Source: a virus. From it: DNA of 45,889 nt. The stretch lies in the UHGV virus genome UHGV-1375786, one strand, 5' to 3'. Made by a program: the position numbers and the translations under genes. A model generated the notes under the pieces. It was given only the letters and a program-made list of their open reading frames with translations, was not told the origin of the DNA and made no database searches. The first letter of the stretch is position 1. Each line of letters begins with the position of its first letter. Shown in pieces: positions 1 through 17,488 of the stretch.

Positions 1-870
1 AGAGTTTTCAATGGCAAGCACCAGCCATGCCCGTCATGCTCAGGAAAAGACAGATATCGCTTTGATGACAACTTCGAAAAAAAAGGCGATGGCGGCGCAA
101 TCTGCAATCAGTGCGGTTCCGGCAGCGGCATGAACTGGCTGATGAAACTTTCAGGCATGAACTTCCCTGAAGCACTGGAGGCGCTGGGTGGATTCCTGAA
201 TATGAATCCACGCGAAAAACTGGAGGCAATCAGGAAGGAACTGCCGAAGATAAATCACAATGACGACTTCATTACCGAGCAGGAAGTCGCCGCAATCATG
301 TCTAAAACGACGCGTGTCGCGATGAATGAGTGGACTTTGATAAATGGTATTGGTTGCGACGTTAACGTCGTCAAAGGCAAATCTGGAGAGCTTATTGCTG
401 TTGAGATGGTGCGTGCTGACACAATGAAGCCTTGCAACGTAGCATTCATTGGCATGGATGGTGATGCATTCAGAACGTTTTTCCGCGCAGGATACAACAA
501 GGACTCAGCAATCAACGGCAAACTCACACGCGGCGCGATAAGCCCAATCGGTGAAGACAACGGAAAGTTCATTTATCTGGTATCTGATTATGCAGACGCA
601 TGGGGATGCCATTACTTCACTGGCGCGCATGTCTGGTGCTGCTGGTCGCCGGAAAACATGTGGGAAGTGGTGCGTTCTGTTAGCGATGAAACGAAGGAGA
701 GATTGCGATGCATAGTTAATTATAAATTTGACGAACTTTGTGCTGCGGAAAATGCAGGACTTCCGGTGATGCTGCCTGATGATGCGGACACAATAAGAAT
801 GGCGAAGCGAATAAGGAGAAAGATTTATGACGCTGGCGAGTTGATAGAAAAAATGTCAGTCAGCAGATAA
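1..870 (+). CDS. DNA primase, C-terminal portion (zinc-ribbon CxxC..CxxC followed by TOPRIM-like region). It is 5' partial because the ORF enters from upstream of the window
   Basis: The frame is open from nt 1. The motif CPSCSGKDRYRFDD...CNQCGSG is a primase zinc-binding ribbon, and an acidic DGD-containing core follows. A stem-loop terminator follows the stop. Confidence 0.7.
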   Translation, partial: RVFNGKHQPCPSCSGKDRYRFDDNFEKKGDGGAICNQCGSGSGMNWLMKLSGMNFPEALEALGGFLNMNPREKLEAIRKELPKINHNDDFITEQEVAAIMSKTTRVAMNEWTLINGIGCDVNVVKGKSGELIAVEMVRADTMKPCNVAFIGMDGDAFRTFFRAGYNKDSAINGKLTRGAISPIGEDNGKFIYLVSDYADAWGCHYFTGAHVWCCWSPENMWEVVRSVSDETKERLRCIVNYKFDELCAAENAGLPVMLPDDADTIRMAKRIRRKIYDAGELIEKMSVSR

Positions 871-873
871 AAG

Positions 874-898
874 AAACCCTCCATCTGGAGGGTTTTTG
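874..898. terminator. Bidirectional rho-independent terminator (CCCTCCAtcTGGAGGG + T-run)
   Basis: A perfect GC-rich hairpin followed by TTTTTGTT. It sits between convergent genes. Confidence 0.7.
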
Positions 899-1180
899 TT
901 ATGCTTTGATGTTAACTTTTATTGCGAACACCTTTACCGGTTTATCGCCGAAGTGTGGGTGTGTGATTGTCTTGATTTCATATCCGTCATACGAAACATC
1001 AATTCTGCGACTGGAATCGTCTCGTTTCGGATATCCCTTTGTGATAATCAGGCGGTCATATTCCCTGAACATGATTCGTTTATTCCAGTAGTCATTACAC
1101 AGGCGGTACTCTTCCGTTTTCTCTCCGCGAATCATGGCATCGAAGTATTCGACTTTGACGGCAAGTTGCAAGTTAGCCAT
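899..1180 (-). CDS. ASCH-domain-like protein (about 93 aa)
   Basis: GGAGGA RBS sits 6 nt upstream of the ATG at 1180, and TGATG stop/start overlap links it to the upstream gene. The VKVEYFDAMIRGEKTEEYR...ITKGYP pattern resembles the ASCH fold. Confidence 0.5.
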   Translation of the reverse strand: MANLQLAVKVEYFDAMIRGEKTEEYRLCNDYWNKRIMFREYDRLIITKGYPKRDDSSRRIDVSYDGYEIKTITHPHFGDKPVKVFAIKVNIKA

Positions 1181-1437
1181 CAGTTTTCCTCCAGAACCCA
1201 AACCGAATTACCAATGCGACTGTTATTTAAATCCTTTGATACAAGGCCATCCTTACAAAGAGAAATCAAAACCTTCCGTAACTTTGCTGCCGTCCATTCA
1301 TCATCAGGAAATTCATTCACCATCGATAGACGGAGATTCCACGTAGCCACGGAGAACTTGCGACAAATCCCAAGTGTCTCCTCCTCAATGGATTTTCTCT
1401 TTCTCATCACGTATAAAACTTTATCTTTCACATCCAT
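1180..1437 (-). CDS. hypothetical protein (85 aa)
   Basis: ORF with an AGGA RBS, translationally coupled to flanking genes. Confidence 0.5.
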   Translation of the reverse strand: MDVKDKVLYVMRKRKSIEEETLGICRKFSVATWNLRLSMVNEFPDDEWTAAKLRKVLISLCKDGLVSKDLNNSRIGNSVWVLEEN

Positions 1438-1447
1438 TTTCTTGTCC

Positions 1448-1639
1448 TCACTTAATCATCAATTTTGAAATATCAACATAACCAACACAAAATCTGTGCC
1501 AGTAATCATCAAGCACGTGGTAATTAGAGCGAATCCATACTTTGTTAATTCTGCTCCAGAAAAACCACGTCGAATAACCATGCGGCCTGAAATGCCATGA
1601 ACCTTCTGAGCGGCAAAGTTCGCCTGATATTGTTCTCAT
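1448..1639 (-). CDS. hypothetical small protein (about 63 aa; start chosen at the ATGA overlap with the upstream gene)
   Basis: ATGA overlap with the stop of the 543-aa ORF. A longer alternative start at 1723 would overlap by 88 nt. Confidence 0.4.
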   Translation of the reverse strand: MRTISGELCRSEGSWHFRPHGYSTWFFWSRINKVWIRSNYHVLDDYWHRFCVGYVDISKLMIK

Positions 1640-3267
1640 TTTAAGTTCCTCATAAATCTCATTCTCTTCATTGCTGATGACAGGATATTCCTGACTGATG
1701 AGTTCATTCGCAAACCAGACCATGAGCCGCCACCAGAAAGCCTGATATTGGATGGATTTTCAGGGTCCAACTCTATTGGTGAATGCCTGTTTTCAGATAT
1801 CGCAATGATGACCTCGTAAGTAAATTTATCCGGCGTAACCTGAATTGAGTTCGAATCGGCAGCGGAAATTATTTTGCTGATTCTGTCGCGACAAAGTTTG
1901 TTTTTGACAACTGAAATATAAGGCTTTTCAGTAAAAGCCTTTGATTCAATGCATTTTTTAACCTTCATAACAATGTTGTCCCACTCAGTGTTTTCAAGGC
2001 CATCAAACTCTGCTTCTCCCTCCAGATAATCACGCAGGTCGTACATGCTGTTCATTACGGTTGCATACGCCCATTCAATATGGCATTCCTTTATCTGCGG
2101 AGTCATGCCATTGCGCGATGATAAATCAGCAAATGCACAAAGAGTCGCAAGCTCTATAACCATCTGAGCAGAGCGAGGGCCGACGCTACCAATTACACCG
2201 GGAATATTGCTTGACTTGTCTATGCGCCTGCGCAACATCTCATAGTATTTCGAAACACCATCATTGGCATATTCCACATTAAAAAAACCACCTGGGATTC
2301 TGGGTTTCCATTCGTTTATTATTGTTTTATTAATTTCCATGTCCGGCGTATTCTTAAGTTCCGGCATGTGCTCATGACCTTTAATGAAAAGAGATCTGCC
2401 CATGCCACCATCCTTTTCCCATCTCCGTACTGTTGCAATGCCCTGCTCTGGGGTAACGGTTATGAACGGAATGAACCTTACGTTCTGTATTCCCTTATCG
2501 TTAATGCACAGGTCATAACATTGCATGGCGTGATTTAATCTTCTCCCAATGTCATGATTCATTTTTGCAAGACGACGATAATCTATGGCGCCATCTGATT
2601 CACCGATGCGAGGTATCATCCACCCCTGAGCCTGCGCAGCAGAGAGTATTAACTTCGGGTTTTGAGCACTAGCCAGCTTCTCCTGAAACAATGTAACAAC
2701 AGGTGACTCAGGAAACCAGTCACCACTAATGGACGTCCTGAACCATGAGGCTGTTTCACCAAGCGGAGAGCGCGTATCTGACCAAGCCTGAAGATGTTCA
2801 GGGCAGTCATCTGCTATATAAAGCAAGAAACCATCAGCCTCAATGAGACGCTCTTTAATTTGTCGCAATGATGTTACGGTGCTTTTTGATACGCGCGGAG
2901 TGATTCCGAGATTCTCTGAGTAAGCCTTAACAAAATCAGATGGAGCACCCTTACCTGCGCCAGAACGACCAACAATAAATGTCCCAGTGGCACACTTGTT
3001 TTTTGCGCTTGGGCCAATTATGTATCTACCAGCCATCACCTGAGCAAGCGCGATAGCACCAGGTAATCTGTACACCTCTCCTTCTTCGCGATTTTCAAAA
3101 TGATTCTCTATCTCGCACATGAATTCACCAAGAGAGCCGGGAGGTATTTTGTATCCATCACGGAATTCTGGTACGTCAATTTCATCAAGTGGATTTCCAG
3201 AATCAGGCTTACCTGTTGGCTTCAGAGATTCCTTTAGCTCAATGATTTGCTTTGAATCAGTCATCAC
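1636..3267 (-). CDS. P-loop NTPase-domain protein, 543 aa, function unknown. The Walker A GRSGAGKGA is of the adenylate/cytidylate-kinase type (GKG); LLYIADD is a candidate Walker B
   Basis: Long ORF in an operon with ATGA overlaps on both sides. The glycine-rich P-loop is seen directly. No confident family assignment. Confidence 0.7.
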   Translation of the reverse strand: MMTDSKQIIELKESLKPTGKPDSGNPLDEIDVPEFRDGYKIPPGSLGEFMCEIENHFENREEGEVYRLPGAIALAQVMAGRYIIGPSAKNKCATGTFIVGRSGAGKGAPSDFVKAYSENLGITPRVSKSTVTSLRQIKERLIEADGFLLYIADDCPEHLQAWSDTRSPLGETASWFRTSISGDWFPESPVVTLFQEKLASAQNPKLILSAAQAQGWMIPRIGESDGAIDYRRLAKMNHDIGRRLNHAMQCYDLCINDKGIQNVRFIPFITVTPEQGIATVRRWEKDGGMGRSLFIKGHEHMPELKNTPDMEINKTIINEWKPRIPGGFFNVEYANDGVSKYYEMLRRRIDKSSNIPGVIGSVGPRSAQMVIELATLCAFADLSSRNGMTPQIKECHIEWAYATVMNSMYDLRDYLEGEAEFDGLENTEWDNIVMKVKKCIESKAFTEKPYISVVKNKLCRDRISKIISAADSNSIQVTPDKFTYEVIIAISENRHSPIELDPENPSNIRLSGGGSWSGLRMNSSVRNILSSAMKRMRFMRNLK

Positions 3268-3542
3268 AGGACTCTCCAGATATACATGAATTTTTTGCTT
3301 CCACTGGTTTTTGTTTTGATGACCATTCCTTGTTCATTGGCTATTCTGGTGCAATAAGACCTGAACATGTTGTGCGTCATGCGGTACTTTTCATCGATCA
3401 CTACAGAACAGCAATTCTCCTTTTCTCCTTTTATGATTTCGCTTGAGTATTCATTCTCGAAGTGAATACCAACCAGTTCGCCAGATTTCATTGAAGATAA
3501 CAGCTCGTATGCAAACATTAATTTAGTGCCATCTGGGTACAT
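3264..3542 (-). CDS. hypothetical protein (92 aa), first gene of the leftward cassette
   Basis: Strong RBS AAGGAGGG 4 nt upstream of the ATG. Stop overlaps the next start (ATGA). Confidence 0.55.
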   Translation of the reverse strand: MYPDGTKLMFAYELLSSMKSGELVGIHFENEYSSEIIKGEKENCCSVVIDEKYRMTHNMFRSYCTRIANEQGMVIKTKTSGSKKFMYIWRVL

Positions 3543-3637
3543 TCAGCCCTCCTTTTGTTATGTAAAAAATATACATGAATATTATGTACACGTCAACGAC
3601 AGCAAGATGACGTTCTTACTTACACATCTTTACAGTA

Positions 3638-4020
3638 TTTACCGGAGTTACCGGGTTTTTATCGGGAAGTTACCGACGCAAGTTATTGATAACTATAGAG
3701 TTACCGGAGTTACCGGATTTTTTGCATATGAGAACAGAAAAATTTTAAAAATGAGAATTTGTATCAAAATTGAATAAAATGCTTATAAATCATATATATA
3801 ATAAGAAATTAAACCCTTTTTATATATGTAAGGAGTTACCAGGTAAATCCGGTAACTCGTCTGAGAGCCTTGCTACATGCGGGTTTCAAGTTACCGGACG
3901 ACCGGTAACTCCGGTAACTTTTTAATGGTGAAAACGACATAAAAGCAACGTAAGTAATTGATTTATAATAGTTACCGGTTTTTGCACATTGAGTTACCGG
4001 ATTTTTCGAGATTCGGTAAA
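3638..4020. repeat. Iteron array: about 12 copies of AGTTACCGG / CCGGTAACT (direct and inverted, including GTTACCGG-acga-CCGGTAAC) flanking an AT-rich core
   Basis: Copies located by eye include 3646, 3668(var), 3699, 3708, 3834(var), 3849(inv), 3889, 3902(inv), 3911(inv), 3970 and 3992. Confidence 0.8.
3721..3830. other. AT tract of about 110 bp, more than 85% AT by eye (candidate DNA unwinding element)
   Basis: Sequence such as ...ttttaaaaatgagaatttgtatcaaaattgaataaaatgcttataaatcatatatataataag..., bracketed by iterons. Confidence 0.6.
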
Positions 4021-4026
4021 TTAATA

Positions 4027-4055
4027 TTGACGTAGAATCACCACTGATGTAGATT
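4027..4055 (+). promoter_or_regulatory. Candidate sigma70 promoter TTGACG-17-TAGATT for the rightward early operon. It overlaps two inverted copies of the AATCTACRTCA box
   Basis: Hexamers and spacing read directly. The first ORF starts at 4086 with an RBS GAGGGTGA. Confidence 0.4.
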
Positions 4056-4085
4056 GGACTCATCGGAACAAACGAGGGTGAAGAT

Positions 4086-4232
4086 ATGAAAATCAAAGAT
4101 CGTGAAGAATTTGAAGATGCACAGGCCATGGCGCGCATTGCAGTTAATAGTCAGAACAACAGCATTCCTGCTGATGCATTCTGGAACGCTGCAATGCAGG
4201 CTTTAGCTTCAGCGTATGGATTAAGCAAATGA
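4086..4232 (+). CDS. hypothetical small protein (48 aa)
   Basis: RBS GAGGGTG. ATGA overlap with the next ORF. Confidence 0.5.
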   Translation: MKIKDREEFEDAQAMARIAVNSQNNSIPADAFWNAAMQALASAYGLSK

Positions 4233-4324
4233 CAGGCGCAACATTCGAGATTATCGCCAGTCTGGTTATCGCGGCATTCATCATTATCGCAGTGGCAGTT
4301 TCAAAATCAGGGTATAAGGAGTAA
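4229..4324 (+). CDS. hypothetical small hydrophobic protein (31 aa, one TM helix)
   Basis: ATGA coupling. The peptide is hydrophobic: IIASLVIAAFIIIAVAV. Confidence 0.35.
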   Translation: MTGATFEIIASLVIAAFIIIAVAVSKSGYKE

Positions 4325-4328
4325 CAAA

Positions 4329-4409
4329 ATGAGCAACTGGCATAACGAACACATCATGCAGTGGTATCGTCGTCGCATTAAAGCAATCATTAACTCTTGC
4401 GAGGCTTAA
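4329..4409 (+). CDS. hypothetical micro-protein (26 aa)
   Basis: RBS AAGGAG 8 nt upstream. Tight gene packing. Confidence 0.3.
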   Translation: MSNWHNEHIMQWYRRRIKAIINSCEA

Positions 4410-4412
4410 CAA

Positions 4413-4595
4413 ATGGCAAAGACAATCTATCGTCGCGAGAAGCTGGAACAGGAACTCGGTCACGTTGGCGCGCAGAACTTTATGAGCAAGCAAGCACGCA
4501 ATGCGATGGAATCTGTGCGCGTAAATCGCGTTGTGCGAGTGTTTAATGGCGAAGGTAAGCGAAGAGTAATGGATGAGCTTATTGTTGTGTTTTGA
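4413..4595 (+). CDS. hypothetical protein (60 aa)
   Basis: ORF in the packed early operon. Confidence 0.45.
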   Translation: MAKTIYRREKLEQELGHVGAQNFMSKQARNAMESVRVNRVVRVFNGEGKRRVMDELIVVF

Positions 4596-4631
4596 ACACG
4601 ATTCAGCACGTTTATTTTGACTGGTGATGAT

Positions 4632-4865
4632 ATGGCAAAAGTAAAAACATATGAGTTCTGGTTTGTGCAAAACAAAATGTACGCATCCAGAACAATCAAG
4701 CGAGCATGCTGGTGGAATAAGTGGCTATTGTTGTCAGGATGTCTGGTGCTGGCAAAGTGCAAATTCAAAGCGGTTGACATCACTGATGAAGATGCACTGA
4801 AAATCGCCAAGATTGAGTTTGAAGAAGATGGTTATTACGAAGAAATTATGGGGATTAGGGTATGA
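4632..4865 (+). CDS. hypothetical protein (about 77 aa; start at MAKVKTYEF)
   Basis: GGTGA RBS before the internal ATG. The stop overlaps the next start. Confidence 0.45.
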   Translation: MAKVKTYEFWFVQNKMYASRTIKRACWWNKWLLLSGCLVLAKCKFKAVDITDEDALKIAKIEFEEDGYYEEIMGIRV

Positions 4866-5389
4866 GTGAAGTGAATATATATACATTGGTTATGGGCGAA
4901 AAAGAGATTCTTGGTTTTAAGCATGGAGAAGAGCAGAGGCTCGGGCAGTTCGTTAAATACAAGTACTATGCAGCGCTCGAAACTAAATGCGCGGCGCTGG
5001 CGGCGGAATTGAAGCAAAGCAGGATTGACGCCGACTGCTACAAGAAGGGCATGGAGGCGTCAAATGCTCGACTGGTGCAACTGGCTGCGGAGAATGCAGC
5101 GCTGAAGTCTGGCGCTATGGACGAAATCAAGGTTATCAACCGTGGAGGGCAGGCATATTGCGTAAAAGATGGAGTGCAAGTTAATCCCATGTATGCAAGA
5201 GGGTGGAATGACTATCGCGCAAAGTCTCTGCAATCAGACACCCCAGCCACCGATGCTTTCATGGCTGAAGTCCTGGCGCAGGGCGTGGAGATGTTCGGAC
5301 AGTACCATAACTTCAGCGAAAAGCTATTCATTCAGAAAGAGGCGCAGAAATTCGCCGCGCAGCTTCGCAAAGGAGTTGATAAAAAATGA
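4862..5389 (+). CDS. hypothetical protein (175 aa)
   Basis: Long ORF with ATGA overlaps on both sides. Confidence 0.6.
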   Translation: MSEVNIYTLVMGEKEILGFKHGEEQRLGQFVKYKYYAALETKCAALAAELKQSRIDADCYKKGMEASNARLVQLAAENAALKSGAMDEIKVINRGGQAYCVKDGVQVNPMYARGWNDYRAKSLQSDTPATDAFMAEVLAQGVEMFGQYHNFSEKLFIQKEAQKFAAQLRKGVDKK

Positions 5390-5688
5390 CAATCACAAAA
5401 CAACGAGTAGAAGAAATAATATCGCGCATTGAAATGTATGGTCATGGCGCCGGGTATACCGCTGAAGAGGTTTATGACCTTGCGGTGCTGGCATTGAATT
5501 TATCAAATATCGCAAAACTCAAGCGATACGAGCTTGATACTGGTGGTTGCGACACGTTCAGTCCGAACTGCTGTGCTGACATTACTGAAGACCATGAAGG
5601 AGAATTTGTCATGTTTGACGATGTTGTCAGTCTGGTTCAGTTTGACACAACCGCTCAGCAATTCGAAAGCCTGGCTAAAAGTGAATAA
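5386..5688 (+). CDS. hypothetical protein (100 aa)
   Basis: ATGA overlap with the upstream gene. Confidence 0.55.
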   Translation: MTITKQRVEEIISRIEMYGHGAGYTAEEVYDLAVLALNLSNIAKLKRYELDTGGCDTFSPNCCADITEDHEGEFVMFDDVVSLVQFDTTAQQFESLAKSE

Positions 5689-5751
5689 CTACCAGTTCAT
5701 ATTAATTATCAGCGCGCTCTATGTGGCGCACGCTTTAGTGGAGGAATACCT

Positions 5752-5859
5752 ATGACCAGACACCAACGCCGCCGATACACCACTGGCGCTAAAATCTTCC
5801 TTGCTGTTTATGTGCTGGCACTGGTAGCAGCTATCGCGGGAGTTGTGCATTATGTTTAA
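5752..5859 (+). CDS. hypothetical small membrane protein (35 aa)
   Basis: Strong RBS GGAGGAATACCT before the ATG. TM-like segment IFLAVYVLALVAAIAGVV. Confidence 0.45.
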   Translation: MTRHQRRRYTTGAKIFLAVYVLALVAAIAGVVHYV

Positions 5860-6172
5860 TCAATTAGCTGATTTCTATAAAGCGTACTCAGACTGGATTG
5901 ATTCCGGAGCGCCAGAAGGTAAGCCGTTCAGTCGTAATTGCGGTATTTGTGTTTCCTTAACATTGCATTTAAAAGAGGCTGGGTTAACACCAAAGGAAAG
6001 GGAGCAGGCAAGAAAGTTAATGCGTTCGCAATTCATTAAAGCTGGACTTAATGGTGATTACCCGTTTAACAACCGAGAACTACCATACTTAACAGAGAGC
6101 GCAAGAGGGCTGATTCACACCAACAAGAATCGCATTGCATGGGTTAAAAAGGAGTGGCAGCATTATGTTTGA
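5852..6172 (+). CDS. hypothetical protein (about 106 aa; start MFNQLADFYKAY)
   Basis: ORF. The start was chosen at an internal ATG that overlaps the previous stop. Confidence 0.5.
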   Translation: MFNQLADFYKAYSDWIDSGAPEGKPFSRNCGICVSLTLHLKEAGLTPKEREQARKLMRSQFIKAGLNGDYPFNNRELPYLTESARGLIHTNKNRIAWVKKEWQHYV

Positions 6173-6344
6173 CGATATCAGCGACGCAATGCAAAACATG
6201 TGGGAGCGATACTGGAACAGCATGAAGACGTGTCACTACATGATGGTACAGATAGGTAATTATATTGAAGTTGTTCCTGACAATGGTGTGCACGACATTA
6301 AGCACATGTGCTCAACGAGGGCTTTCGCTAATGCAAACAACTAA
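6165..6344 (+). CDS. hypothetical protein (59 aa; start MFDDISDAM)
   Basis: RBS AAGGAG. ATGA overlap. Confidence 0.45.
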   Translation: MFDDISDAMQNMWERYWNSMKTCHYMMVQIGNYIEVVPDNGVHDIKHMCSTRAFANANN

Positions 6345-6504
6345 GCAGAAAGTCTGGCAACTCGCGAAACAACACGAACTGGACGAATTCATCGCTAAGG
6401 TTGCCAAAACATTCCCTGACGCGCTTGAAATCGTTCATGTGCAGACTCGTAATGAAAACGCATGGTGCTATGCTGGCAAGCGCGATAATCATGGTGTACA
6501 ATAA
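6331..6504 (+). CDS. hypothetical protein (57 aa; start MQTTKQKVW)
   Basis: Overlaps the upstream stop. Last gene before a terminator. Confidence 0.4.
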   Translation: MQTTKQKVWQLAKQHELDEFIAKVAKTFPDALEIVHVQTRNENAWCYAGKRDNHGVQ

Positions 6505-6548
6505 ACGTATAACCACCATTGCTTCACTCATATCATCACCCAACCTTT

Positions 6549-6576
6549 AACCCGCCTTGTGCGGGTTCTTTTTTAT
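6549..6576 (+). terminator. Rho-independent terminator (AACCCGCcttgtGCGGGTT + T7)
   Basis: Hairpin plus TTTTTTAT immediately after the early operon. Confidence 0.75.
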
Positions 6577-6621
6577 CTGTGTTAAACTAACGATATCGAA
6601 ATACGAAAAGACGAAAACAGA

Positions 6622-7068
6622 ATGGCTAATCCAAACCCTGTCATGAAATTTTCCTCTGAGTACCAGCCTGCTGGCAGAGGATTAAGCTACAGAAACAGGC
6701 TTATTGAGGCATTAAAGCGTTGTGGGCTTGGAGAAGAGGAGTTTCTTGACGCATTCATCAGGACTTCAATCAGGATGACGGAGGAAAACCCGACTCAGGG
6801 TGTGCAAATGCTGAAGGAAATATTCCTACGCATCAGCCCTGTGCAAAAGAGTATGGCACCTCCGGTTAATTTTAAATACCGCAAAGATGCTACTCCAGTT
6901 GAGCAGATAGAGGACGTCATTCAATCTGTTTCCAGTGGTGAGCTTCCAATCGATGTGGCGTCGCAGGTTGTGTCTATGATTAAGGTTGGCCTTGACGTGA
7001 AAGAATTAACCGAACTCGCTGCACGCCTTGAGCGACTGGAGAAATTACTGGAGCAGCAGAATGGGTGA
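6622..7068 (+). CDS. terminase small subunit (putative)
   Basis: 148 aa, directly upstream of the large terminase. C-terminal coiled coil LTELAARLERLEKLLEQQ. Confidence 0.55.
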   Translation: MANPNPVMKFSSEYQPAGRGLSYRNRLIEALKRCGLGEEEFLDAFIRTSIRMTEENPTQGVQMLKEIFLRISPVQKSMAPPVNFKYRKDATPVEQIEDVIQSVSSGELPIDVASQVVSMIKVGLDVKELTELAARLERLEKLLEQQNG

Positions 7069-7204
7069 TTCAGTTTATTATAAACAAAGATGTGATGAAG
7101 TGATTCTTCTGCGCAGCGGAGATGAGCAAGGTGTTGTGTTTGATGGGCCAATGAGTGATGAGGAGGTGGTGGCCATCCTTCAGGAGCTAACCAATGGCTC
7201 GTAA
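7061..7204 (+). CDS. hypothetical small protein (47 aa) bridging terminase small and large genes
   Basis: The ATG overlaps the TerS stop, and the stop overlaps the TerL start in the +1 frame. Confidence 0.3.
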   Translation: MGDSVYYKQRCDEVILLRSGDEQGVVFDGPMSDEEVVAILQELTNGS

Positions 7205-8618
7205 ACGTCTCTCCGCACTGGCAATAGAAAAGCTGGAAGCGCAGATTGATGACGCGATGACTGATGTTGCAGAGTCTGCCATCTTTGGTATCTGCGACAT
7301 GCAGAAAAACGTCATCAAGCGGTTAAGGATGACTGCTACTGGTGTTGATGACGTGACCAATGCAACCACTCATGCTGACCACCTGATTCCGGCAAAACTG
7401 GAGCGCCTGCTTTATCCGAAGCGTTTTAAGTTTGTCTACGGTGGCCGCGGGTCAGGGAAGACGAGAACGATTATCACTATCCTTACTGAGAGAGCAAGGT
7501 TTCGCCCTGACCGCTTTGCCTGTTTTCGTGAGATTCAGCAATCCATTGAGGATTCAAGCTATCAGGAATTGTGCGACGAAATAGCGCGCAAGGGTGAATC
7601 GTCAGAGTTTCGCGTTATCAATAACGAGATAACGCACAAGAAGACCAAAGCGAAGTTTCGCTTCAAGGGGCTGTATCGCAATCAGACAACCGTCAAGGGG
7701 TTTGCTGGCATTACCGTTGGCTGGGTTGAGGAGGCGGAGAACGTCAGCCAGACAAGCTGGGATATTCTTGTGCCTACCATCCGTGCTGCCAATTCTGAAT
7801 TGTGGTGCTCATTCAACCCCAACAAGGAGACTGACCCTACATGGAAAAACTGGATTGCTCCTTACCGCTCACAAATGGTTGATGGCATATTTGAAAATGA
7901 TGAAATTCTGATTATCGAATGTAACTATTCCGACAACCCGTGGTTCTGGGATACACCACTGCCATCCGCTATGGAGCAAATGAAGCGCGTCGATTTCGAC
8001 CGCTATATGTGGATATGGGAAGGCAAATTTAACAAACGCAGCGACGAGCAGGTCTTCGGCGGCAAATGGCGCATTGATAACTTTGAGGTCAAACCTGAAT
8101 GGCATGGCCCATATTTCGGCATGGACTTCGGGTTTTCCACGGATCCTACCGCAATGGTTGAGGTTTACATCGAAGAACTTCCCGGCGGGCGTCGCAACAT
8201 TTATATTAATCGCGAGTACGGCAAGGTGGGGCTTGAAATTACTGACACGCCAGCTGCGATGGAGCAATCATTTCCGATGGCTAAGCGCGCACGATGGTAT
8301 GCCGACTGTGCTCGTCCCGAAACCATCAGCCACATCAAGCGTTCTGGATTCGATATCCACCCGTGCACTAAATGGCCCGGTAGTGTCGAGGATGGCGTGA
8401 CGTGGCTGCGCGGCTGCGACAGCATCATCATCCATGAGCGATGCAGGGAAATGCAGAATGAAGCTGCAATGTACAGCTACAAGGTTGATAAGCTGACCGG
8501 AAACGTTCTGACTGATATTGTCGATGCATTCAACCACTACTGGGATGCGGTTCGTTACGCACTCAATGACCACATCGTCCAGCGCGGTAGCGGAATGCTA
8601 ATCCGGCGCAGGCGATAA
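7194..8618 (+). CDS. terminase large subunit
   Basis: Walker A VYGGRGSGKTRT. 474 aa, with an ATPase N-domain and a nuclease-like C-domain pattern (WVEEAENV..., acidic residues). Confidence 0.9.
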   Translation: MARKRLSALAIEKLEAQIDDAMTDVAESAIFGICDMQKNVIKRLRMTATGVDDVTNATTHADHLIPAKLERLLYPKRFKFVYGGRGSGKTRTIITILTERARFRPDRFACFREIQQSIEDSSYQELCDEIARKGESSEFRVINNEITHKKTKAKFRFKGLYRNQTTVKGFAGITVGWVEEAENVSQTSWDILVPTIRAANSELWCSFNPNKETDPTWKNWIAPYRSQMVDGIFENDEILIIECNYSDNPWFWDTPLPSAMEQMKRVDFDRYMWIWEGKFNKRSDEQVFGGKWRIDNFEVKPEWHGPYFGMDFGFSTDPTAMVEVYIEELPGGRRNIYINREYGKVGLEITDTPAAMEQSFPMAKRARWYADCARPETISHIKRSGFDIHPCTKWPGSVEDGVTWLRGCDSIIIHERCREMQNEAAMYSYKVDKLTGNVLTDIVDAFNHYWDAVRYALNDHIVQRGSGMLIRRRR

Positions 8619-8619
8619 A

Positions 8620-8648
8620 AATAAATCCCTCAATTGAGGGCTTGTGGT
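8620..8648. terminator. Palindromic terminator CCCTCAATTGAGGG, with the stronger T-run on the minus strand
   Basis: Perfect 14-bp palindrome at the end of the convergent gene pair. Confidence 0.5.
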
Positions 8649-8911
8649 TATATTTTACCTTCTTGCATCAAACCTTCAACCACCGTCATTTTGTATCTCG
8701 GCAGCCTGTAAGACTCCAGTGCTTTCTCTGCTCCGCGCTGCGATTTGTATGCCTTAATGCTGGGCACTGGAGTCACCGAGTCTTCAGCGCCGTAACCGTA
8801 ATTTGATACCTGCACTACACGAAACATACCATCAATGTTGCGCACGCATAGATTTTTGAATGCGACAAGGCCAGTTTCTTTGTTGATGTAGCGAGTGATG
8901 ATGCGTTCCAT
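8648..8911 (-). CDS. hypothetical protein (87 aa), opposite-strand moron between terminase and portal
   Basis: ORF ending at the terminator, divergent from a motif-rich regulatory region. Confidence 0.5.
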   Translation of the reverse strand: MERIITRYINKETGLVAFKNLCVRNIDGMFRVVQVSNYGYGAEDSVTPVPSIKAYKSQRGAEKALESYRLPRYKMTVVEGLMQEGKI

Positions 8912-8929
8912 AAATCCTCCTTGTTTCGT

Positions 8930-9050
8930 ATGAGTTCAATCTACATCACAGCAATATCTACGTCAACATTTATTATTGTTGTTGATAAATCTGCATCACC
9001 GCGCTTGACCAATCTACACCGAGCGCATAGTATAATCTACATCAGGCTTA
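8930..9050 (+). promoter_or_regulatory. Five tandem copies of the AATCTAC(A/G)TCA box (8933, 8955, 8987, 9008, 9036) plus TTGACC and TATAAT elements
   Basis: Copies read directly. They lie upstream of the ORF at 9065. Confidence 0.55.
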
Positions 9051-9064
9051 CCGGGGATATCACT

Positions 9065-9271
9065 ATGCGCAGCTATGCAGGATTTACACAGGAGGAAAAA
9101 GAGCAGGTTTATTCACTGGCGCGGGCTGGCGTGCCTGATGATGTGATTTGCCGTAGGTATGACATAGACGAGGATTTTCTGCTGCGCGTTCTGGATGATG
9201 TCTTCGTTAACCTGCAAGAGAAACGCGGATATAAGGGTATCTGCTGCAAGAATGATTTTTTGAGAGGTTGA
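9065..9271 (+). CDS. hypothetical protein (68 aa), possible HTH regulator
   Basis: ORF downstream of the 5x box cluster. FTQEEKEQVYSLARAGVPDDVICRRYDI is HTH-like. Confidence 0.45.
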   Translation: MRSYAGFTQEEKEQVYSLARAGVPDDVICRRYDIDEDFLLRVLDDVFVNLQEKRGYKGICCKNDFLRG

Positions 9272-9272
9272 T

Positions 9273-9461
9273 TTGATGAGTGTTTATTTTATTCATGCTG
9301 AAGTGCTTGATGGTGGTGATGTTGTTACAAAGGTTTGTGCGACAGCTACGACATCCAACGCCAATGAAGCGTTTGATTGGTTTTTGGGTTGCGAATTGGT
9401 TGCAAAATACGAAATAAAAGGCTACGACGTTATCATTGATAAACTTGAGAAGGTGGAGTGA
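9273..9461 (+). CDS. hypothetical protein (62 aa)
   Basis: Packed ORF. Confidence 0.45.
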   Translation: MMSVYFIHAEVLDGGDVVTKVCATATTSNANEAFDWFLGCELVAKYEIKGYDVIIDKLEKVE

Positions 9462-9664
9462 TGGACAGAAGACATCTTAACGAGTTGGCTACTGAACTTA
9501 GAAAAAGATTTGAGAGCATCTGGTTTGATAACCGCCATGAATTCAATGATAAGCGATATCAGATTTACGCAAAATGCAGAGGTTTGGTGGTCGGGGATAG
9601 GATGGAAAATTCCGTGTTCCATCATGGCGATGACATAATGCACAGGCGAGCCTTCGACTATTGA
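9458..9664 (+). CDS. hypothetical protein (68 aa)
   Basis: ATGA overlap with the upstream gene. Followed by a terminator. Confidence 0.45.
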   Translation: MMDRRHLNELATELRKRFESIWFDNRHEFNDKRYQIYAKCRGLVVGDRMENSVFHHGDDIMHRRAFDY

Positions 9665-9676
9665 TACCATGCTATA

Positions 9677-9706
9677 ATCCCATCCAACGTGATGGGATTT
9701 TTTTAT
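9677..9706 (+). terminator. Rho-independent terminator (ATCCCATCcaacgtGATGGGAT + T7)
   Basis: Hairpin plus TTTTTTTAT. Confidence 0.7.
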
Positions 9707-9715
9707 TGGTGACAT

Positions 9716-11125
9716 ATGTCAAAAATTGATGCGTTAAACGCCTATATACGCGACCGCGTGGCGAACAATAACCGGGCTATTCAGCAGCAGCGGCTTTGCG
9801 CTGGTGGTAAGAATCTGGACCAGAAACGTGAGTTCATGTGGAAGGAGCTTGGCTACCCGCAGGAAATCACCGCCGAGATGTTCCGCTATGCCTATGAGCG
9901 ACATCCAGCCGCCGCCGCTGGTATTAACCGCATTATTAATAAATGCTGGCAGAAATATCCGGAAGTGGTAGAAGATGGCGAGGATGACAAGAACTCTACG
10001 TCGTGGGAATTATCCATCAACGACATGATGAAGCGCGCCTATCCGTTCATCAAAGAGGCCGACAAGCGCAACGCCATCAACCGCTATTCCGCTGTTATCC
10101 TGCAAATCCGCGATGGCAAACAGTGGAGTGAGCCGGTAGACGTCACCAAAACTCGCCGCATTAAAGATAAATCCATTGTTCGCTTCATTCCGGTGTGGGA
10201 GGAGCAACTCCGCGTCAGTGCGTGGAATAACGACGAAACCAGCGAAGACTACGGTATGCCTGAGATGTACGAATACCAGGAAAGCGCCGTGGAAGATTTT
10301 AGCGACGGCAAGCCTGAGCGTTCCGTGCAGATTCACCCTGACCGCATCATCATTCTGGCTGAGGGTAGCTTTGACGGCAGCATGTTCAGTGGTGTCCCGA
10401 TGCTGCGTGCTGGCTACAACAGCCTTATCGACATGGCTAAGGTTTCCGGCAGCTCCGCAGAAGGATTCCTGAAGAATGCCAGCCGCCAACTGGCCGTTAA
10501 CTACACGAAGGATAACGTAACGCCAGCAAGCCTTGCTCAGTCAATGGGTGTCGATATCGAAGAGCTAACCGATATCATGAATGAGAACATCGAGGCGCTG
10601 AACTCAGGCATAGACAGTGCCATGTTCACAATGGGTGCGGATGCAAAAGTTCTCGCTGTGACTCCAGCTGACCCGAAACCCACATGGGAGGTGGCAGCCA
10701 ACCAGTTCGCTGCATCAATGGCACTTCCATTCACGGTCATTTTCGGGCAGCAAACCGGACGCCTTGCGAGCGACGAAGACAAGATGCAGGAGGCGATGAC
10801 TGCCAAGCAGCGCCGCGAAACGTGGGTGGATTATGTCATCTCAATGTTTGTTGAGCGAATGATTCAGTTTGGCATTGTCGATAAAGCACCAGAAAATGGC
10901 TACAAAGTTAAGTGGGATGACCTGCTGGCACCATCGGAACTGGATAAAGCGGAGTTGCTGGCCAAACTGGCCACCGCGAACAAATCGTTCTTTGACGCTG
11001 GTCAATCTGCACTACTGACCGTCGATGAGGCTCGCGGCATGGTGGGTATGGAGCCGATTGAACTTGATGAAAGCTATCGCGAAGACACACCACCAGAAGA
11101 CGAAAATGAAGATACTCCGGTTTAA
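9716..11125 (+). CDS. portal protein
   Basis: 469 aa ORF between TerL and the MuF-like gene. Acidic C-terminus. Confidence 0.8.
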
Positions 11126-12056
11126 CGCAAGGCTTCCTCAACCGCGCATATCGCAGAGCCTGACCGACCCGTTAGGCGCTGCGTCTCGCCTGTCGAAGAT
11201 GGACAAGGTGATAACTCGCAAATACAAACAACTAAGGACTCGTGCGCTTGAGTTGTTTCGCGCTATTCCGAATAGCCAGGCTAACGCAGAATCAAGCGAC
11301 CTGTATTTCTATGATTTCAGCAGCGCGCGTGCCGCTACTTTCATGGATGAGTTACAGGCGCTGATTGACGAGATTCTACTTGAAGGTGATGACTTCGGTC
11401 ACGGTAGAATGTGGGCTAACGTGTTCATCGGTGATGCGTATCAGGCTGGAACACAGAAGGCTAACTCTGAACTGTCAAGGCTGTCTCCTGTTTATGCCGA
11501 GCAAAGACCGATTGCCGCGATACTCTACAGTGAGCCTTACCTGAATAGACTTCAACTGGCCTATGCCGCTGGCTATTCCGACTGGCGCGGATTGAGTGAT
11601 TATTCCCGCCAGCAACTGGCATCTGTCATTATGGAAGGCATTGCTCGTGGCGCTAATCCTCGAGACGTTGAAGCTGACATCGTTAAGCGTGTGGATGTGT
11701 CTCACAGCTATGCTAAGCAGCTGGCGCAAACGGAAATCACCGGAACGCTACGGCAGGCAAACAGGCGAGAAGTCATTGAAGCTCGCGAGGAATTGGGTAT
11801 TGAGACGGTGATGCTGTGGCAGTCGGCATTAATGCGCACAACTCGCCAGACACACGCCGCGCGACATGGACGGTTTTTTGCGCCAGAAGAGATTGACACG
11901 TTCTATAGTGAGAATGGCAACAGATATAATTGCCACTGCGCGCAAACTCCAGCATTGCTAATGGATGGTAAACCAGTCATTCTTGAGTCTTCACAGGAAA
12001 GGCTTGATAAGCAGCGCGAAGCATGGCAATCGGCAAACAAAAAGCCCTCTAAGTGA
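11106..12056 (+). CDS. head morphogenesis protein, Mu gpF / SPP1 gp7-like (start uncertain; alternatives at 11025 and 11199)
   Basis: Position after the portal. MuF-like core [14 protein letters not shown]...[17 protein letters not shown]. Confidence 0.7.
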
Positions 12057-12070
12057 GGGCTTTGATTTAT
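12040..12070. terminator. Stem-loop AAGCCCTCtaagtGAGGGCTT overlapping the MuF stop codon
   Basis: Hairpin and T-rich tail read directly. Confidence 0.45.
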
Positions 12071-12143
12071 CTTATCAGCATGCACAGAACAAATATTATT
12101 ATCGCATAGCACAATATCTCTACGACGCTGAATATGATTTTAA

Positions 12144-12377
12144 TCATTTCCATGATTCATGTTTAAATTGATATCCGTTATCGCACTCTTTGCATGCAAA
12201 CTCAGTCCTTCCGTCTCCATATGGGTCAATCATTCCGGTGCCATTACATTTAGGGCAAATTCGCGCATCACCATCAATAACAGCTTGATGAATCTTTGCC
12301 GCGCACTGGTCAGTAAACACATTGCCGTCAGAGGTCTTCCAGTGGGTTATAGCAATATTTATTTTCTCAGGAAACAT
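12144..12377 (-). CDS. TraR/DksA-type C4 zinc-finger protein (77 aa)
   Basis: CPKC-x17-CKEC spacing matches the TraR/DksA zinc-finger signature. Confidence 0.5.
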   Translation of the reverse strand: MFPEKINIAITHWKTSDGNVFTDQCAAKIHQAVIDGDARICPKCNGTGMIDPYGDGRTEFACKECDNGYQFKHESWK

Positions 12378-12379
12378 AA

Positions 12380-12937
12380 TTAATCATCCAGTTTCACGCC
12401 GGGAATCTTGCCTGCTGCGATGGCTTCGTAAATTAGCTTGGCCTCATCCTCGCGCTTGTAATCTTGAGCCACCATTTCTAATATTGCGCAGATAGATTCA
12501 AGTACGGCCTCATGCTTCCTTTCTGATTCCGTGCGTAGTGGTCTAAATTTTGTATGGCTCACGCTAAACGCTCTCTCAGAGCCGTCAATTACACCAACTA
12601 TAACTTCTGCGCCCACAAATAGCACCTTGCATAAATGCCATGCATCAAGAAACTGACACTCACACTCACGCCCCACTGGCGGAATGCCTTCGCCGTCCCA
12701 TGTTTGCCTTTGCGATGTGGCGAGTGCGGATTCATATTGCTCTTTTGTTATTTTTGCGCCACTCCCTCCGCATTTCCTGTGATTAATAGCCAGCTCATCA
12801 AGGAAGATTCCTGTCATTGCTCTGCCTCTTCCATAAAACATAAGTTCTCTGTCATAATCTTGCCCGATATGAGTTACATCTTTGGGCCACCCGCCACGCT
12901 TAGGCAATTCTTGAACTAACAGGTCGATAAGTTTCAT
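12380..12937 (-). CDS. hypothetical protein (about 185 aa; start MKLIDLL)
   Basis: RBS GGAGAG 7 nt upstream of the ATG at 12937. The longer in-frame extension lacks an RBS. Confidence 0.55.
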   Translation of the reverse strand: MKLIDLLVQELPKRGGWPKDVTHIGQDYDRELMFYGRGRAMTGIFLDELAINHRKCGGSGAKITKEQYESALATSQRQTWDGEGIPPVGRECECQFLDAWHLCKVLFVGAEVIVGVIDGSERAFSVSHTKFRPLRTESERKHEAVLESICAILEMVAQDYKREDEAKLIYEAIAAGKIPGVKLDD

Positions 12938-12951
12938 TTTTTTGCTCTCCA

Positions 12952-13167
12952 TCAATAATTTGGCTTTACGTCTTTCATTGTTAGCGGCTTCCATCCGTTT
13001 GCTATTGCAATGTCGATGCAATCCTCAAGCGTCTTTGCTTTTATTGGCTCACCAACTTCACTATCATCAAATTTTCTCTGTATTTGATAGCCATCAACAA
13101 CATAGAGAATTTCCACAGAGCCATGTAGCGTGTGCATAGACTCAAGCCATTGCAGGTGGTAGCTCAT
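12952..13167 (-). CDS. hypothetical protein (71 aa)
   Basis: ORF in the leftward moron operon. Confidence 0.45.
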   Translation of the reverse strand: MSYHLQWLESMHTLHGSVEILYVVDGYQIQRKFDDSEVGEPIKAKTLEDCIDIAIANGWKPLTMKDVKPNY

Positions 13168-13466
13168 TTTGTTTCTCCCAACGCTTTATTAATCGCCGCA
13201 CGCGCATTATCCAGAGCGCGACGCTTGCTTGATGCTGTCCAGACTTTGCCGGATTGGTCGTCGTATATTTCCAGTAGTTGCTGTAGTGTTGCGAGTATTT
13301 CCGGTGATGCTGCGATTAATTTTGCGTTATGCCATTGTTCGGTTTTATCACCGTTATATGTTGGAGTGAACGCAATCTCAACACCAATATCCGAGATAAT
13401 GTCCGGTGAGTTATCATCACCAATAACAACTTCCCATTTTCCACGCGTACCTTTAAATTCTTCCAT
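13164..13466 (-). CDS. hypothetical protein (about 100 aa; start MEEFKG)
   Basis: RBS TGAGG before the internal ATG. ATGA overlap downstream. Confidence 0.45.
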   Translation of the reverse strand: MEEFKGTRGKWEVVIGDDNSPDIISDIGVEIAFTPTYNGDKTEQWHNAKLIAASPEILATLQQLLEIYDDQSGKVWTASSKRRALDNARAAINKALGETK

Positions 13467-13799
13467 CGCCAACCTCACTTAACATACTCAACAATTTCAC
13501 ACTCGCGCATCTGCACAAGACCAAATGGCGCAACCAGTTTGCCGCATTTCATAACTTTAATCTGAGACAAATCGAATGCGACGGTTTGTCCTGTGGTGAA
13601 TTTTATGATTGCCATTATGCTAACTCCCCAGTTTCAGTTAGTACAACGCAAGCGCATTCAATTTCAGCATCTTCCGACTCCAGTATTCGAGATATCTTCT
13701 TAGCCTCAATAAGGCAATCAAATGTTTCGCCGTAAAAGTAAATCTCACCATCACAACCTTCAATTTCAATAGAGTACATATCAATCACCTCATTCGTTT

Positions 13800-13845
13800 G
13801 TGTATCTACATCATAGCCTCGCCATCCAATCTACGTCAATACCTG
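13800..13845 (+). promoter_or_regulatory. Two direct AATCTACRTCA boxes (13803, 13831) followed by GTCAATACC and TGtGATAGAAT (extended -10-like) upstream of the lysis cassette
   Basis: Read directly. The lysis ORF starts at 13884 with an AGGAGG RBS. Confidence 0.5.
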
Positions 13846-13883
13846 TTGTGATAGAATTAATTATTATTTAAACAGGAGGCAGA

Positions 13884-14162
13884 ATGAAATTATCGCAACG
13901 CGGCATGGAGACCCTTGGAATCACCAACACCGTGGATATATCGCCTTACATCACAACCGAGACAACGCAGAATCAGTTTGATGCACTGACAAGCCTTGCC
14001 ACCGACATTGGCATTGACGCTTTCCGCAAATCAACGCTTCTGAAGAAACACAATCTACGCTGCTTCTCATGTACTGTTGCGCATTTCATCGTGTGGGGCG
14101 AGAAGACTGGCGACAAAGCAAAACGCAAAGCTGAAAAAGAGGTTTACTGGTATGGCTATTAG
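13884..14162 (+). CDS. truncated GH24 (T4/P22-type) lysozyme-like protein, 92 aa. It retains the C-terminal NQ(F/Y)DAL.SL...IG..AF..STLL block and lacks the N-terminal catalytic region
   Basis: Strong RBS. Comparison by memory with P22 gp19 / T4 e: ...NQNQFDALTSLATDIGIDAFRKSTLLKKHN.... Confidence 0.5.
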   Translation: MKLSQRGMETLGITNTVDISPYITTETTQNQFDALTSLATDIGIDAFRKSTLLKKHNLRCFSCTVAHFIVWGEKTGDKAKRKAEKEVYWYGY

Positions 14163-14616
14163 CAAAAACATGAAGGCATTTCTGGATATGCTGGCGTACA
14201 GCGAGGGCACGGATAACGGACGACAGAAAACCAATAATCATGGTTATGATGTGATTGTTGGTGGCTCACTGTTTACCGACTATTCAGATCACCCGCGCAA
14301 GCTGATTAGCCTGCCAAAGTTGGGTATCAAATCCACTGCTGCCGGACGCTATCAGGTGCTGGCTAAATTTTATGACGCGTACAAAAAGCAACTACGCCTG
14401 CCTGACTTCTCCCCCGCATCACAGGACGCTATTGCAATGCAGCTAATCCGTGAATGCAAAGCAACCGCAGATATTGAGGCTGGGCGCATTGCTGATGCCA
14501 TCCATAAATGCCGTTCCCGCTGGGCTTCATTGCCGGGTGCAGGATATGGTCAGCATGAGCAGAAACTGGATAAACTGATTGAGGTATACAAGGATGCTGG
14601 CGGAGCTGTGGCATGA
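14152..14616 (+). CDS. endolysin, lambda R-type lytic transglycosylase
   Basis: MKAFLDMLAYSEGTDNGRQKTNNHGYDVIVGG..FTDYSDHPR...WASLPGAGYGQ is near-collinear with lambda R. The start MAISKN is at 14152. Confidence 0.9.
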   Translation: MAISKNMKAFLDMLAYSEGTDNGRQKTNNHGYDVIVGGSLFTDYSDHPRKLISLPKLGIKSTAAGRYQVLAKFYDAYKKQLRLPDFSPASQDAIAMQLIRECKATADIEAGRIADAIHKCRSRWASLPGAGYGQHEQKLDKLIEVYKDAGGAVA

Positions 14617-14843
14617 AAAAGCTAAGCAACTGGTTGCTCGGCGCGTGGATTTCATTCTGCTCGCTGTTGCAGTTATGGCCTGATGCAATGATGCATGTAT
14701 GGGTAATGATGCCGGACGACCTGAAAGCGGCGCTACCGCCAATCGTGGTCAAAGGTGTGAGCTACTCCATCATGCTGATTGGTATTCTCGGCAAAATGCA
14801 CGGCATGAGGAAGGAGAATCGGAGGCTGCGCAATGGTGAGTGA
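14613..14843 (+). CDS. holin (class II-like, 2 TMD, charged C-terminus)
   Basis: 76 aa. Two hydrophobic segments and a basic tail KMHGMRKENRRLRNGE. ATGA overlap with the endolysin. Confidence 0.6.
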   Translation: MKKLSNWLLGAWISFCSLLQLWPDAMMHVWVMMPDDLKAALPPIVVKGVSYSIMLIGILGKMHGMRKENRRLRNGE

Positions 14844-14983
14844 GCAAAGAGATGCATTAGTACAGGAATGGGCGCGCATAACCAGCGGGGGAGGTGATAT
14901 TGAGTCGGCGTGGCGCGCACTTAAAAAGCGCTCACAATTGGTGCAGTTTGCAACTCGCCGGTGTTTTATATGGAGACCGCACA

Positions 14984-15475: not shown

Positions 15476-15492
15476 TGGGGCTTGTGTTTACT
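15461..15492. terminator. Bidirectional terminator AAGCCCCgtaatGGGGCTT flanked by an A-run and a T-rich tail
   Basis: Hairpin read directly, between convergent operons. Confidence 0.6.
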
Positions 15493-16111: not shown

Positions 16112-16112
16112 T

Positions 16113-16376: not shown

Positions 16377-16377
16377 T

Positions 16378-17389: not shown

Positions 17390-17424
17390 ATTTACTACTC
17401 CTTCTCGAAAAACATCTTGACGTT

Positions 17425-17462: not shown

Positions 17463-17488
17463 ACCACAACGAGAAAGGTGATGTGGAA

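Follow-up and report, generated by a model that had tools for sequence, protein, structure and literature searches.

The genome UHGV-1375786, a viral DNA of 45,889 nucleotides analysed here over its full length (the window), carries five co-directional genes on its minus strand at positions 899-3542, and these raise the question of what a large P-loop protein is doing between a primase gene and a region of short repeats. The original prediction, made from the sequence alone, had seen in them an acquired accessory cassette and had offered anti-defence, nucleotide modification or replication initiation as its function. The five genes are present as described and it is the last of these functions that our analysis supports; nothing in the locus points to either of the other two. 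By analogy with known replicons, the region is probably the core replication-initiation module of the phage, made up of a self-loading initiator-helicase (the 542-amino acid (aa) protein g542) and its cognate origin, rather than an accessory cassette. The window is the whole circularly permuted genome of a lytic siphophage, opened within its primase gene, given that the primase open reading frame (ORF) continues in frame through the end-to-start junction (45806-45889 joined to 1-870, the 3' part being 1-870). The nearest record is Escherichia phage vB_EcoS_swi2 (Swiduovirus), with 93% nucleotide identity across 600-4300, and farther relatives are HC6, STGO-35-1 (Caminolopintovirus), Vi II-E1, C1, IME207 and the BASEL phages Bas77-81.

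Used as a single sequence and as a profile, g542 matched nothing in Pfam, NCBIfam or PDB. Its relatives form just 10 clusters among 5.8 billion proteins, and it is present in 11 phage records (including swi2, Bas77, Bas80 and Bas81), all of which label it 'hypothetical', against 1163 phage records for DUF3987. The first clue to its identity came from PHROG 3022 ('DNA primase'), which matched g542 over its positions 341-711 of 788, a portion corresponding to the half of primase-helicase fusions that lies outside the primase. An exhaustive search of 1.84 billion representatives with the family profile recovered 87 relatives. Among these, P0028 matches the profile over its full length (expectation value (E) 2e-10) and scores 40.5 bits on the Pfam DUF3987 model, for which the cut-off is 27, and P0024 (E 3e-11) also lies above the cut-off with 35.3 bits. 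The distant relatives include Prim-Pol/PriCT_2/DUF3987 fusions, and P0038, a protein with Prim-Pol and PriCT_2 domains, has a sub-threshold DUF3987 match of 25.4 bits.

The AlphaFold2 model of g542, built from an 11-sequence alignment (predicted local distance difference test (pLDDT) 77.7, predicted template modelling score 0.68), has an AAA+ core that can be superimposed on MCM, the closest solved fold. When compared with predicted viral structures by Foldseek, it matched a Salmonella phage LPSTLL protein named 'Replicative DNA helicase' (E 6e-17), fusion proteins of the PrimPol and primase kinds, a protein with an NrS-1-polymerase-like domain and many 'DUF3987 domain-containing' proteins. 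The Walker A motif GRSGAGKG pointed out in the original prediction is real (residues 99-106), with G102, G104 and K105 invariant in 16 family members at 23-62% identity, but the statement that no helicase or AAA+ motifs follow it was wrong. The same 16 members have in common D153 of a Walker B motif (LLYIADD, 148-153), R290 in a GGMGR just ahead of the strand 291-295, which is a candidate arginine finger, and R364 in the first lid helix, a candidate sensor 2; these roles were assigned from the secondary structure of the model and the known MCM layout, and not from residue-level superposition. On the joint strength of profiles and model, g542 is a very divergent MCM-like AAA+ member of the DUF3987 superfamily and a remote homologue of primase-partner helicases, its branch being a rare, unannotated and highly divergent limb of a known helicase superfamily.

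The residue following the Walker A lysine is G or Q, and never S/T, in the 11-member core alignment, and among wider relatives the position is taken by G, Q, S, N, D or E; in the relatives P0001-P0094 the lysine is usually trailed by D, E, Q or G instead of S/T. Judged from these alignments, this residue makes the P-loop unusual for an AAA+ motor, and the glycine that had suggested a nucleoside monophosphate (NMP) kinase is coincidental. An NMP kinase, with its GxxGxGKGT P-loop, small kinase fold and NMP-binding and LID domains, was rejected because of the MCM-like fold and the variable post-lysine residue of g542.

DUF3987 proteins have been described as MCM-related superfamily 6 (SF6) phage replicative helicases that carry a winged helix-turn-helix at their C terminus and are encoded beside primases (PMC4889955). 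One of them, the PriCT-DUF3987 protein AgaPH, binds its primase and has a 5'-3' helicase activity that depends on Walker A and B, and it is the only DUF3987 protein for which ATP-dependent helicase activity has been shown (PMC11724360). With STGO-35-1 gp67, T1 ST9 and AgaPH, g542 shares a P-loop AAA+ core, an MCM-like fold, a size of ~500-550 aa and a gene position next to a primase, in sister phages in the identical genomic slot, and it is linked to DUF3987 by profile search through bona fide members. The primase beside g542 is convergent with it (45806..870), a primase or Zn_Ribbon_Prim gene also neighbours the helicase in loci L005, L007, L008, L009 and L011, and the Zn_Ribbon_Prim domain is found on primase orthologues of the family loci. 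Unlike DUF3987 proteins, g542 fails the Pfam model, has GK(G/Q) rather than GKS and travels with an 88-96-aa partner of its own family; it also has 48 aa between Walker A and B and a 100-aa helical insert after Walker B, whereas the STGO type has ~98 aa between the motifs. Relative to MCM itself (archaeal MCM and eukaryotic MCM2-7, also SF6), sequence identity is 10-14%, and the one DUF3987 helicase that has been characterised moves 5'-3', the reverse of the MCM polarity. Between g542 and its swi2 counterpart there are 85 synonymous and 5 nonsynonymous codon differences, a pattern indicative of purifying selection, the signature of a core gene.

The intergenic region upstream of the operon (3637-4020) is, by its sequence organisation, the predicted replication origin of this phage. 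The 45.9-kb window has nine exact copies of CCGGTAAC, all of them within 3647-4000, against a chance expectation of 0.37, and none of 100 shuffled sequences reached nine copies; the iteron/AT-rich flank noticed earlier is thus confirmed, the copies lying around a core of 21% GC. We compared the layout in eight loci with 43-99% protein identity, namely the window, swi2 and six further loci at 43-62% identity (four metagenomic contigs, Bas77 and KpnS_VR6602). In operon orientation, all eight show a distal array of mixed orientation ending '< < >', then an AT core (100 bp, 16-22% GC), then a proximal array of same-direction copies opening with a tandem pair 8-9 bp apart, followed by promoter, small gene and helicase. 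Our literature search found no paper linking DUF3987 helicases to iterons; the origin prediction is new for this phage group and would not surprise a specialist, and it probably extends to the much larger DUF3987 family with its 1163 phage records, T1 included.

The slot itself, in which a primase gene faces convergent tail genes followed by the large P-loop protein, the small protein and the iteron region, is conserved in related phages. In HC6 and STGO-35-1 the primase is convergent with an ASCH gene, behind which come an 85-aa gene (where present), a 63-aa gene, a 517-aa DUF3987 'DNA helicase' (121 bits on Pfam DUF3987), a 72-aa gene and an intergenic region of about 450 bp. BLASTP found no similarity between g542 and the DUF3987 protein of STGO-35-1. 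Nucleotide homology between the window and HC6 extends over 1-1644 and 4020-4881, breaking off at 1644, only nine bases into the helicase gene as counted from its 3' end; homology to STGO-35-1 resumes at 4027. The replaced block (1645-4019) therefore comprises the helicase gene, the g92 gene, the leftward promoter and the whole iteron/AT-rich region, and leaves out the rightward promoter at 4027. The g63 gene lies just outside, and its product is 95% identical to the one encoded after the DUF3987 helicase in STGO-35-1. The iterons differ with the helicase type, being CCGGTAAC in the window and swi2 and CGTGGGGAA/TTCCCCACG in STGO-35-1 and HC6, where the repeats likewise flank an AT-rich stretch on both sides (L003 7652-7941 in STGO-35-1 and L002 5827-6249 in HC6, each upstream of a pair of small gene and helicase). 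Read from these sequence boundaries, origin, g92 and g542 are an alternative allele that is exchanged as one unit. To this extent the idea of an acquired module holds, as it does for the promiscuous ASCH-like gene discussed below, and the rest of the cassette idea does not.

A second change of iterons is seen within the g542 family. In the clade of P0005, P0006 and KpnS_VR6602, nearly every iteron is (C/T)(C/T)GGGAAC and not CCGGTAAC, that is, GGTAAC has become GGGAAC; these iterons of the Klebsiella-phage clade are located at L006 5318-5587 and L011 about 1840-2110, with the origin layout unchanged. A single-base switch made in concert across about ten sites implies that these have one sequence-specific reader. 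Of the 28 alignment columns that are fixed in this clade and unlike every GGTAA-type member, 16 fall within residues 418-542, a significant enrichment (odds ratio 5; Fisher p 6.5e-5) in a segment that covers a helix-helix-hairpin region and a 3-residue insertion in the hairpin. In P0009, a Bas77-type protein with GGTAAA iterons, the ATPase half groups with the switched clade and the C-terminal domain with the window type. The model places helices at 456-472 and 478-490 and strands at 497-499 and 507-509 (the helix-helix-hairpin of about 450-510), and this pattern could represent a C-terminal winged helix. Given that there is a single switch and that this part of the model is moderately confident, we consider the chances roughly balanced that the C-terminal domain of g542 is the iteron reader, as in the Rep proteins of Staphylococcus aureus pathogenicity islands (SaPIs).

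The small gene ahead of the helicase belongs to the same picture. Of the nine family loci examined, all but that of KLB16, the most distant member, encode a g92 homologue of 88-96 aa immediately upstream of the helicase, and the stop of this homologue overlaps the helicase start wherever the junction was read; the Bas77 copy matches g92 at E 7e-12. The predicted fold is alpha-beta3-alpha-beta2, and g92 may act as a loader, an adaptor or a regulator. A comparison of g92 with the N-terminal extensions of longer relatives, of which it might have been the counterpart, gave no match. Compared by hhalign with the partners of STGO-35-1 (72 aa) and of a Vibrio phage (64 aa), the g92 family reached E 0.03-0.06, which is not significant. 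The three partners (window 3264-3542, L003 7349-7567 and L014 2256-2450) stand upstream of very different DUF3987-type helicases and share a C-terminal pattern of helix, strand, turn and 'hYh(W/K)R(V/I)', also written as helix, 'NEGM.., TK.., hYhWRV', which at these E values is suggestive only. There are thus sequence hints that the small partners constitute an ancient family. The DUF3987 loci of T1 and Webervirus have no obvious small upstream partner, so that the pairing is not universal.

Taking these observations together, we postulate that the origin (3637-4020) would consist of two groups of 8-9-bp iterons, (C/T)CGGTAAC, flanking an AT-rich unwinding element of ~125 bp, and that g542 would be a hexameric AAA+ helicase (MCM-like SF6, DUF3987 superfamily) doubling as initiator. 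It would bind the iterons, most likely via its C-terminal winged-helix-like domain, then melt the AT core, load itself as one or two hexamers with the help of g92 and recruit the adjacent DnaG-type primase, and handover to host DNA polymerase III would complete the replisome. The g92 protein, translated just before the helicase, would be an obligate partner, whether it serves as a loader, as an adaptor or in autoregulation. Together with the origin and the helicase it would form one exchangeable replicon unit (1645-4019), in place of which sister phages carry a canonical DUF3987 helicase, another small partner and other iterons, and the 63-aa, 85-aa and ASCH-like genes would be passengers on the same transcript. 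In this scheme the fold, the link to the superfamily, synteny, the limits of the swap and the co-variation between iterons and module are observed, and it is inferred that the region works as an origin, that g542 is active as a helicase, which of its domains reads the iterons and what g92 does.

Such an arrangement has precedents. In SaPIs, Rep helicases load themselves at iterons on either side of an AT-rich region via a C-terminal winged helix, the proposed iteron reader (PMC9371898); ATP-independent melting of the origin is a further trait of the Rep type. Like the g542 locus, SaPI Rep/PriRep and SCCmec (staphylococcal cassette chromosome) Cch systems have iterons in opposite orientation on both sides of an AT-rich region beside the helicase gene, a primase alongside and specificity alleles exchanged with their origins, although g542 is not of the same protein family as Rep/Cch. 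By analogy, then, the closest mechanistic counterpart is the SaPI Rep self-loading helicase, and the closest family is DUF3987. The lambdoid O/P-ori, P4 alpha with ori/crr and pRN1 orf56/orf904 modules resemble the window in that initiator and cognate repeats are exchanged as a unit, and pRN1 also has a small gene before the large replicase (PMC4234260). The proteins are different, however: lambda O and P are unrelated to g542, P4 alpha and ORF904 belong to superfamily 3, and the origin of the window is intergenic and not inside the initiator gene as in the replication modules compared.

Several observations weigh against this interpretation. No match of g542 to Pfam DUF3987 (PF13148, gathering threshold 27 bits) was obtained at E up to 1, and none to MCM (PF00493) by sequence or profile. 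The direct profile-profile comparison of the g542 family (A4) with the STGO-type DUF3987 family (A3) was colinear and marginal (hhalign probability 4%, E 0.009), and because this comparison is weak the homology to DUF3987 is transitive and structural. In the model, residues 155-258, between Walker B and the sensor-1 strand, form a mostly helical insert with no clear MCM-type pre-sensor-1 hairpin; at this model quality neither the helix-2 insert nor the pre-sensor-1 beta-hairpins are evident, and there is no N-terminal OB-fold or Zn-binding domain, residues 1-90 being short helices. The C-terminal portion is modelled with moderate confidence (pLDDT 55-83), the co-variation of iterons and domain depends on one specificity switch, and fold comparison of g92 returned no functional assignment. 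As judged from its sequence, a Walker A lacking the usual Ser/Thr could mean that ATP hydrolysis is atypical and that g542 is an initiator or switch instead of a motor. In its full form this becomes the proposal that g542 only initiates, binding the iterons and melting the origin like ORC/Cdc6 or DnaA without translocation, and that the fork is unwound by host DnaB or by the 645-aa superfamily 2 (SF2) helicase of the phage. We consider this unlikely, even with the P-loop and the lack of an evident hairpin in its favour. Besides the primase and HNH endonucleases, the genome codes for a single-stranded DNA-binding protein, an ERF annealing protein, a PDDEXK exonuclease and an SF2 (ResIII/Helicase_C) helicase, and swi2 is annotated with neither a DnaB-type helicase nor a DNA polymerase; on this gene content, g542 is the sole candidate replicative helicase.

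Being placed between divergent promoters, the iterons could also, or instead, be regulatory sites. They would then be operators of the leftward and rightward early promoters, bound by g92 or by the C-terminal domain of g542, and replication would start elsewhere or by recombination (ERF/exonuclease). One degenerate copy does abut the rightward -35, the phage has a full recombination module, and pRN1 has a small repressor gene ahead of its replicase gene (PMC4234260). However, the exact iterons overlap neither promoter's hexamers, a core of 100-125 bp with 16-22% GC between oppositely oriented repeats is in eight loci the classic layout of an origin, as also found in SaPI origins (PMC9371898), and the repeats are exchanged along with the helicase, the rightward promoter lying beyond the exchanged segment. 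We therefore regard an exclusively regulatory role as improbable. Least probable is an acquired cassette for anti-defence or for modification of nucleotides or nucleic acids that would combine an NMP-kinase-like P-loop protein with an ASCH RNA-binding protein, given the homology to DUF3987 primase partners and the conservation of the slot in related phages, in essence the very combination that the original prediction had named as its refutation. A replication-initiation module accounts for the locus better than any of these, and a bolder version of it, which we hold to be doubtful, is that the g542 family and its 88-96-aa partner constitute an undescribed two-component initiator-helicase, in which the small protein would be the missing N-terminal tier or loader, supplied in trans, of an MCM-like ring, the ATPase would work without the canonical Walker A Ser/Thr, and changing one base in every iteron, GGTAAC to GGGAAC, could give the origin a new specificity.

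The remaining genes of the operon (Table 1) are, on sequence comparison, variable riders and not core genes. The 93-aa protein at the 3' end belongs to phrog_625 (E 1e-49) and had been called an ASCH protein, which stands at the superfamily level only (PUA-like superfamily). Near-identical proteins are named 'ASCH domain-containing' in RefSeq, the family profile (A6) matches two ASCH structures, 3iuw with an E of 0.007 and 1xne with an E of 0.26, and the protein has, like ASCH proteins (PF04266, e.g. 3iuw), an N-terminal beta-strand followed by a conserved GxKxxExR motif; unlike them, it has no Pfam ASCH match at E up to 1 and occurs in many unrelated phage contexts. Its gene is present in 332 phage records, including the 'ea' regions of the lambdoid HK022 and Stx phages, whose proteins are 92-97% identical, and is missing, together with the 85-aa gene, from swi2. 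An ASCH-superfamily gene recurs at the operon 3' end, of the same family in HC6, STGO-35-1 and KLB16 and of DUF3850/ASCH type in Bas77 (window 899-1180, L009 4027-4443 and L010 4556-4822), which may mean that the gene is functionally tied to replication or just that small accessory genes tend to gather at this site. That such a gene always follows the helicase was rejected, as L005-L008, T1 and PSKP16 have unrelated genes downstream. The g85 gene has a 60% identical copy in HC6 and is absent from swi2 and STGO-35-1. The g63 gene is limited to the swi2/HC6/STGO group, no copy having turned up in family loci of greater distance; compared with swi2 it shows 2 synonymous and 6 nonsynonymous codon differences, unlike the helicase, and this pattern may indicate relaxed or diversifying selection, or a separate exchange.

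Gene starts were set from reading of the sequence and from the starts annotated in swi2, HC6 and STGO-35-1. On this basis the third gene is 63 aa long, as all three phages annotate at this position, and not the 91-aa maximal ORF, and the ASCH-like gene is confirmed at 93 aa. Translational coupling, which had been claimed for the whole operon, applies to three junctions, where genes overlap: g92/g542 (CTGTGATGACT; TGATG, or GTGA if the GTG at 3267 serves as start), g542/g63 (AAAATGAGA; ATGA, helicase stop with g63 start) and g85/ASCH-like (AACTGATGGCT; TGATG). At the fourth, g63 and g85 lie 10 nt apart, and this spacer includes a GAGGA ribosome-binding site. The bidirectional terminator was found as described, with stems of 11 bp and 9 bp on the two strands and a T-run after each. 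The operon was said to be AT-richer than the core genes, and it is so only marginally, having 42.8% GC where the genome has 46.4%, a value that is equalled or undercut in 7% of windows of its size; a strongly AT-rich island is thus rejected and the compositional case for a foreign origin is weak. Outside the operon, a 358-aa HNH_3 endonuclease ORF (44657-45733, minus strand) lies between the SF2 helicase and the primase, a position occupied by a 191-aa HNH gene in swi2 and an 87-aa gene in HC6, which resembles a variable homing-endonuclease slot.

Table 1. Features of the predicted replication module and its surroundings in the window.
Feature	Position	Strand	Remarks
ASCH-like gene	899-1180	-	93 aa; 3' end of operon
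g85	1180-1437	-	85 aa; phrog_2814
g63	1448-1639	-	63 aa, Trp-rich; internal ATG of 91-aa maximal ORF
g542	1636-3264	-	542 aa (543 if GTG at 3267 is used); MCM-like AAA+ protein; predicted replicative helicase and origin initiator
g92	3264-3542	-	92 aa; putative partner protein
Primase (DnaG/T7-type)	45806 to 870, across window end	+	317 aa; convergent with operon; phrog_510
Bidirectional intrinsic terminator	872-897	both	AAAAACCCTCCAGATGGAGGGTTTCTTTT; between convergent primase and ASCH-like gene
Leftward operon promoter, sigma-70-like	3568-3596	-	TTGACG, 17 nt, TATATT; 10/12 matches; precedes g92; graded strong
Gene-proximal iteron array	3637-3716		5 copies of (C/T)CGGTAA(C/A), single orientation
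AT-rich core	3720-3845		21% GC, lowest 100 bp 16% GC; predicted DNA-unwinding element
Gene-distal iteron array	3840-4020		about 9 copies, mixed orientation; '< < >' group abuts AT core
Rightward promoter	4027-4055		divergent from leftward promoter; beyond swapped segment
Iteron-type sequences			CCGGTAAC, CCGGGAAC, TTCCCCACG

This analysis assigns a predicted function to a protein that is called 'hypothetical' in all 11 phage records holding it, predicts a replication origin for this group of lytic Enterobacteriaceae siphophages and removes an anti-defence or nucleotide-modification lead for this locus. The 2.4-kb unit of origin, g92 and g542 is a candidate minimal replicon for phage engineering, and, if the two-component proposal were true, it would be a compact, portable phage replicon whose specificity can be tuned. 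The presence of two very divergent cassettes of helicase and origin in genomes that are otherwise alike, together with one iteron switch within the family, amounts to a natural experiment, which could show how MCM-like phage helicases recognise their origins.

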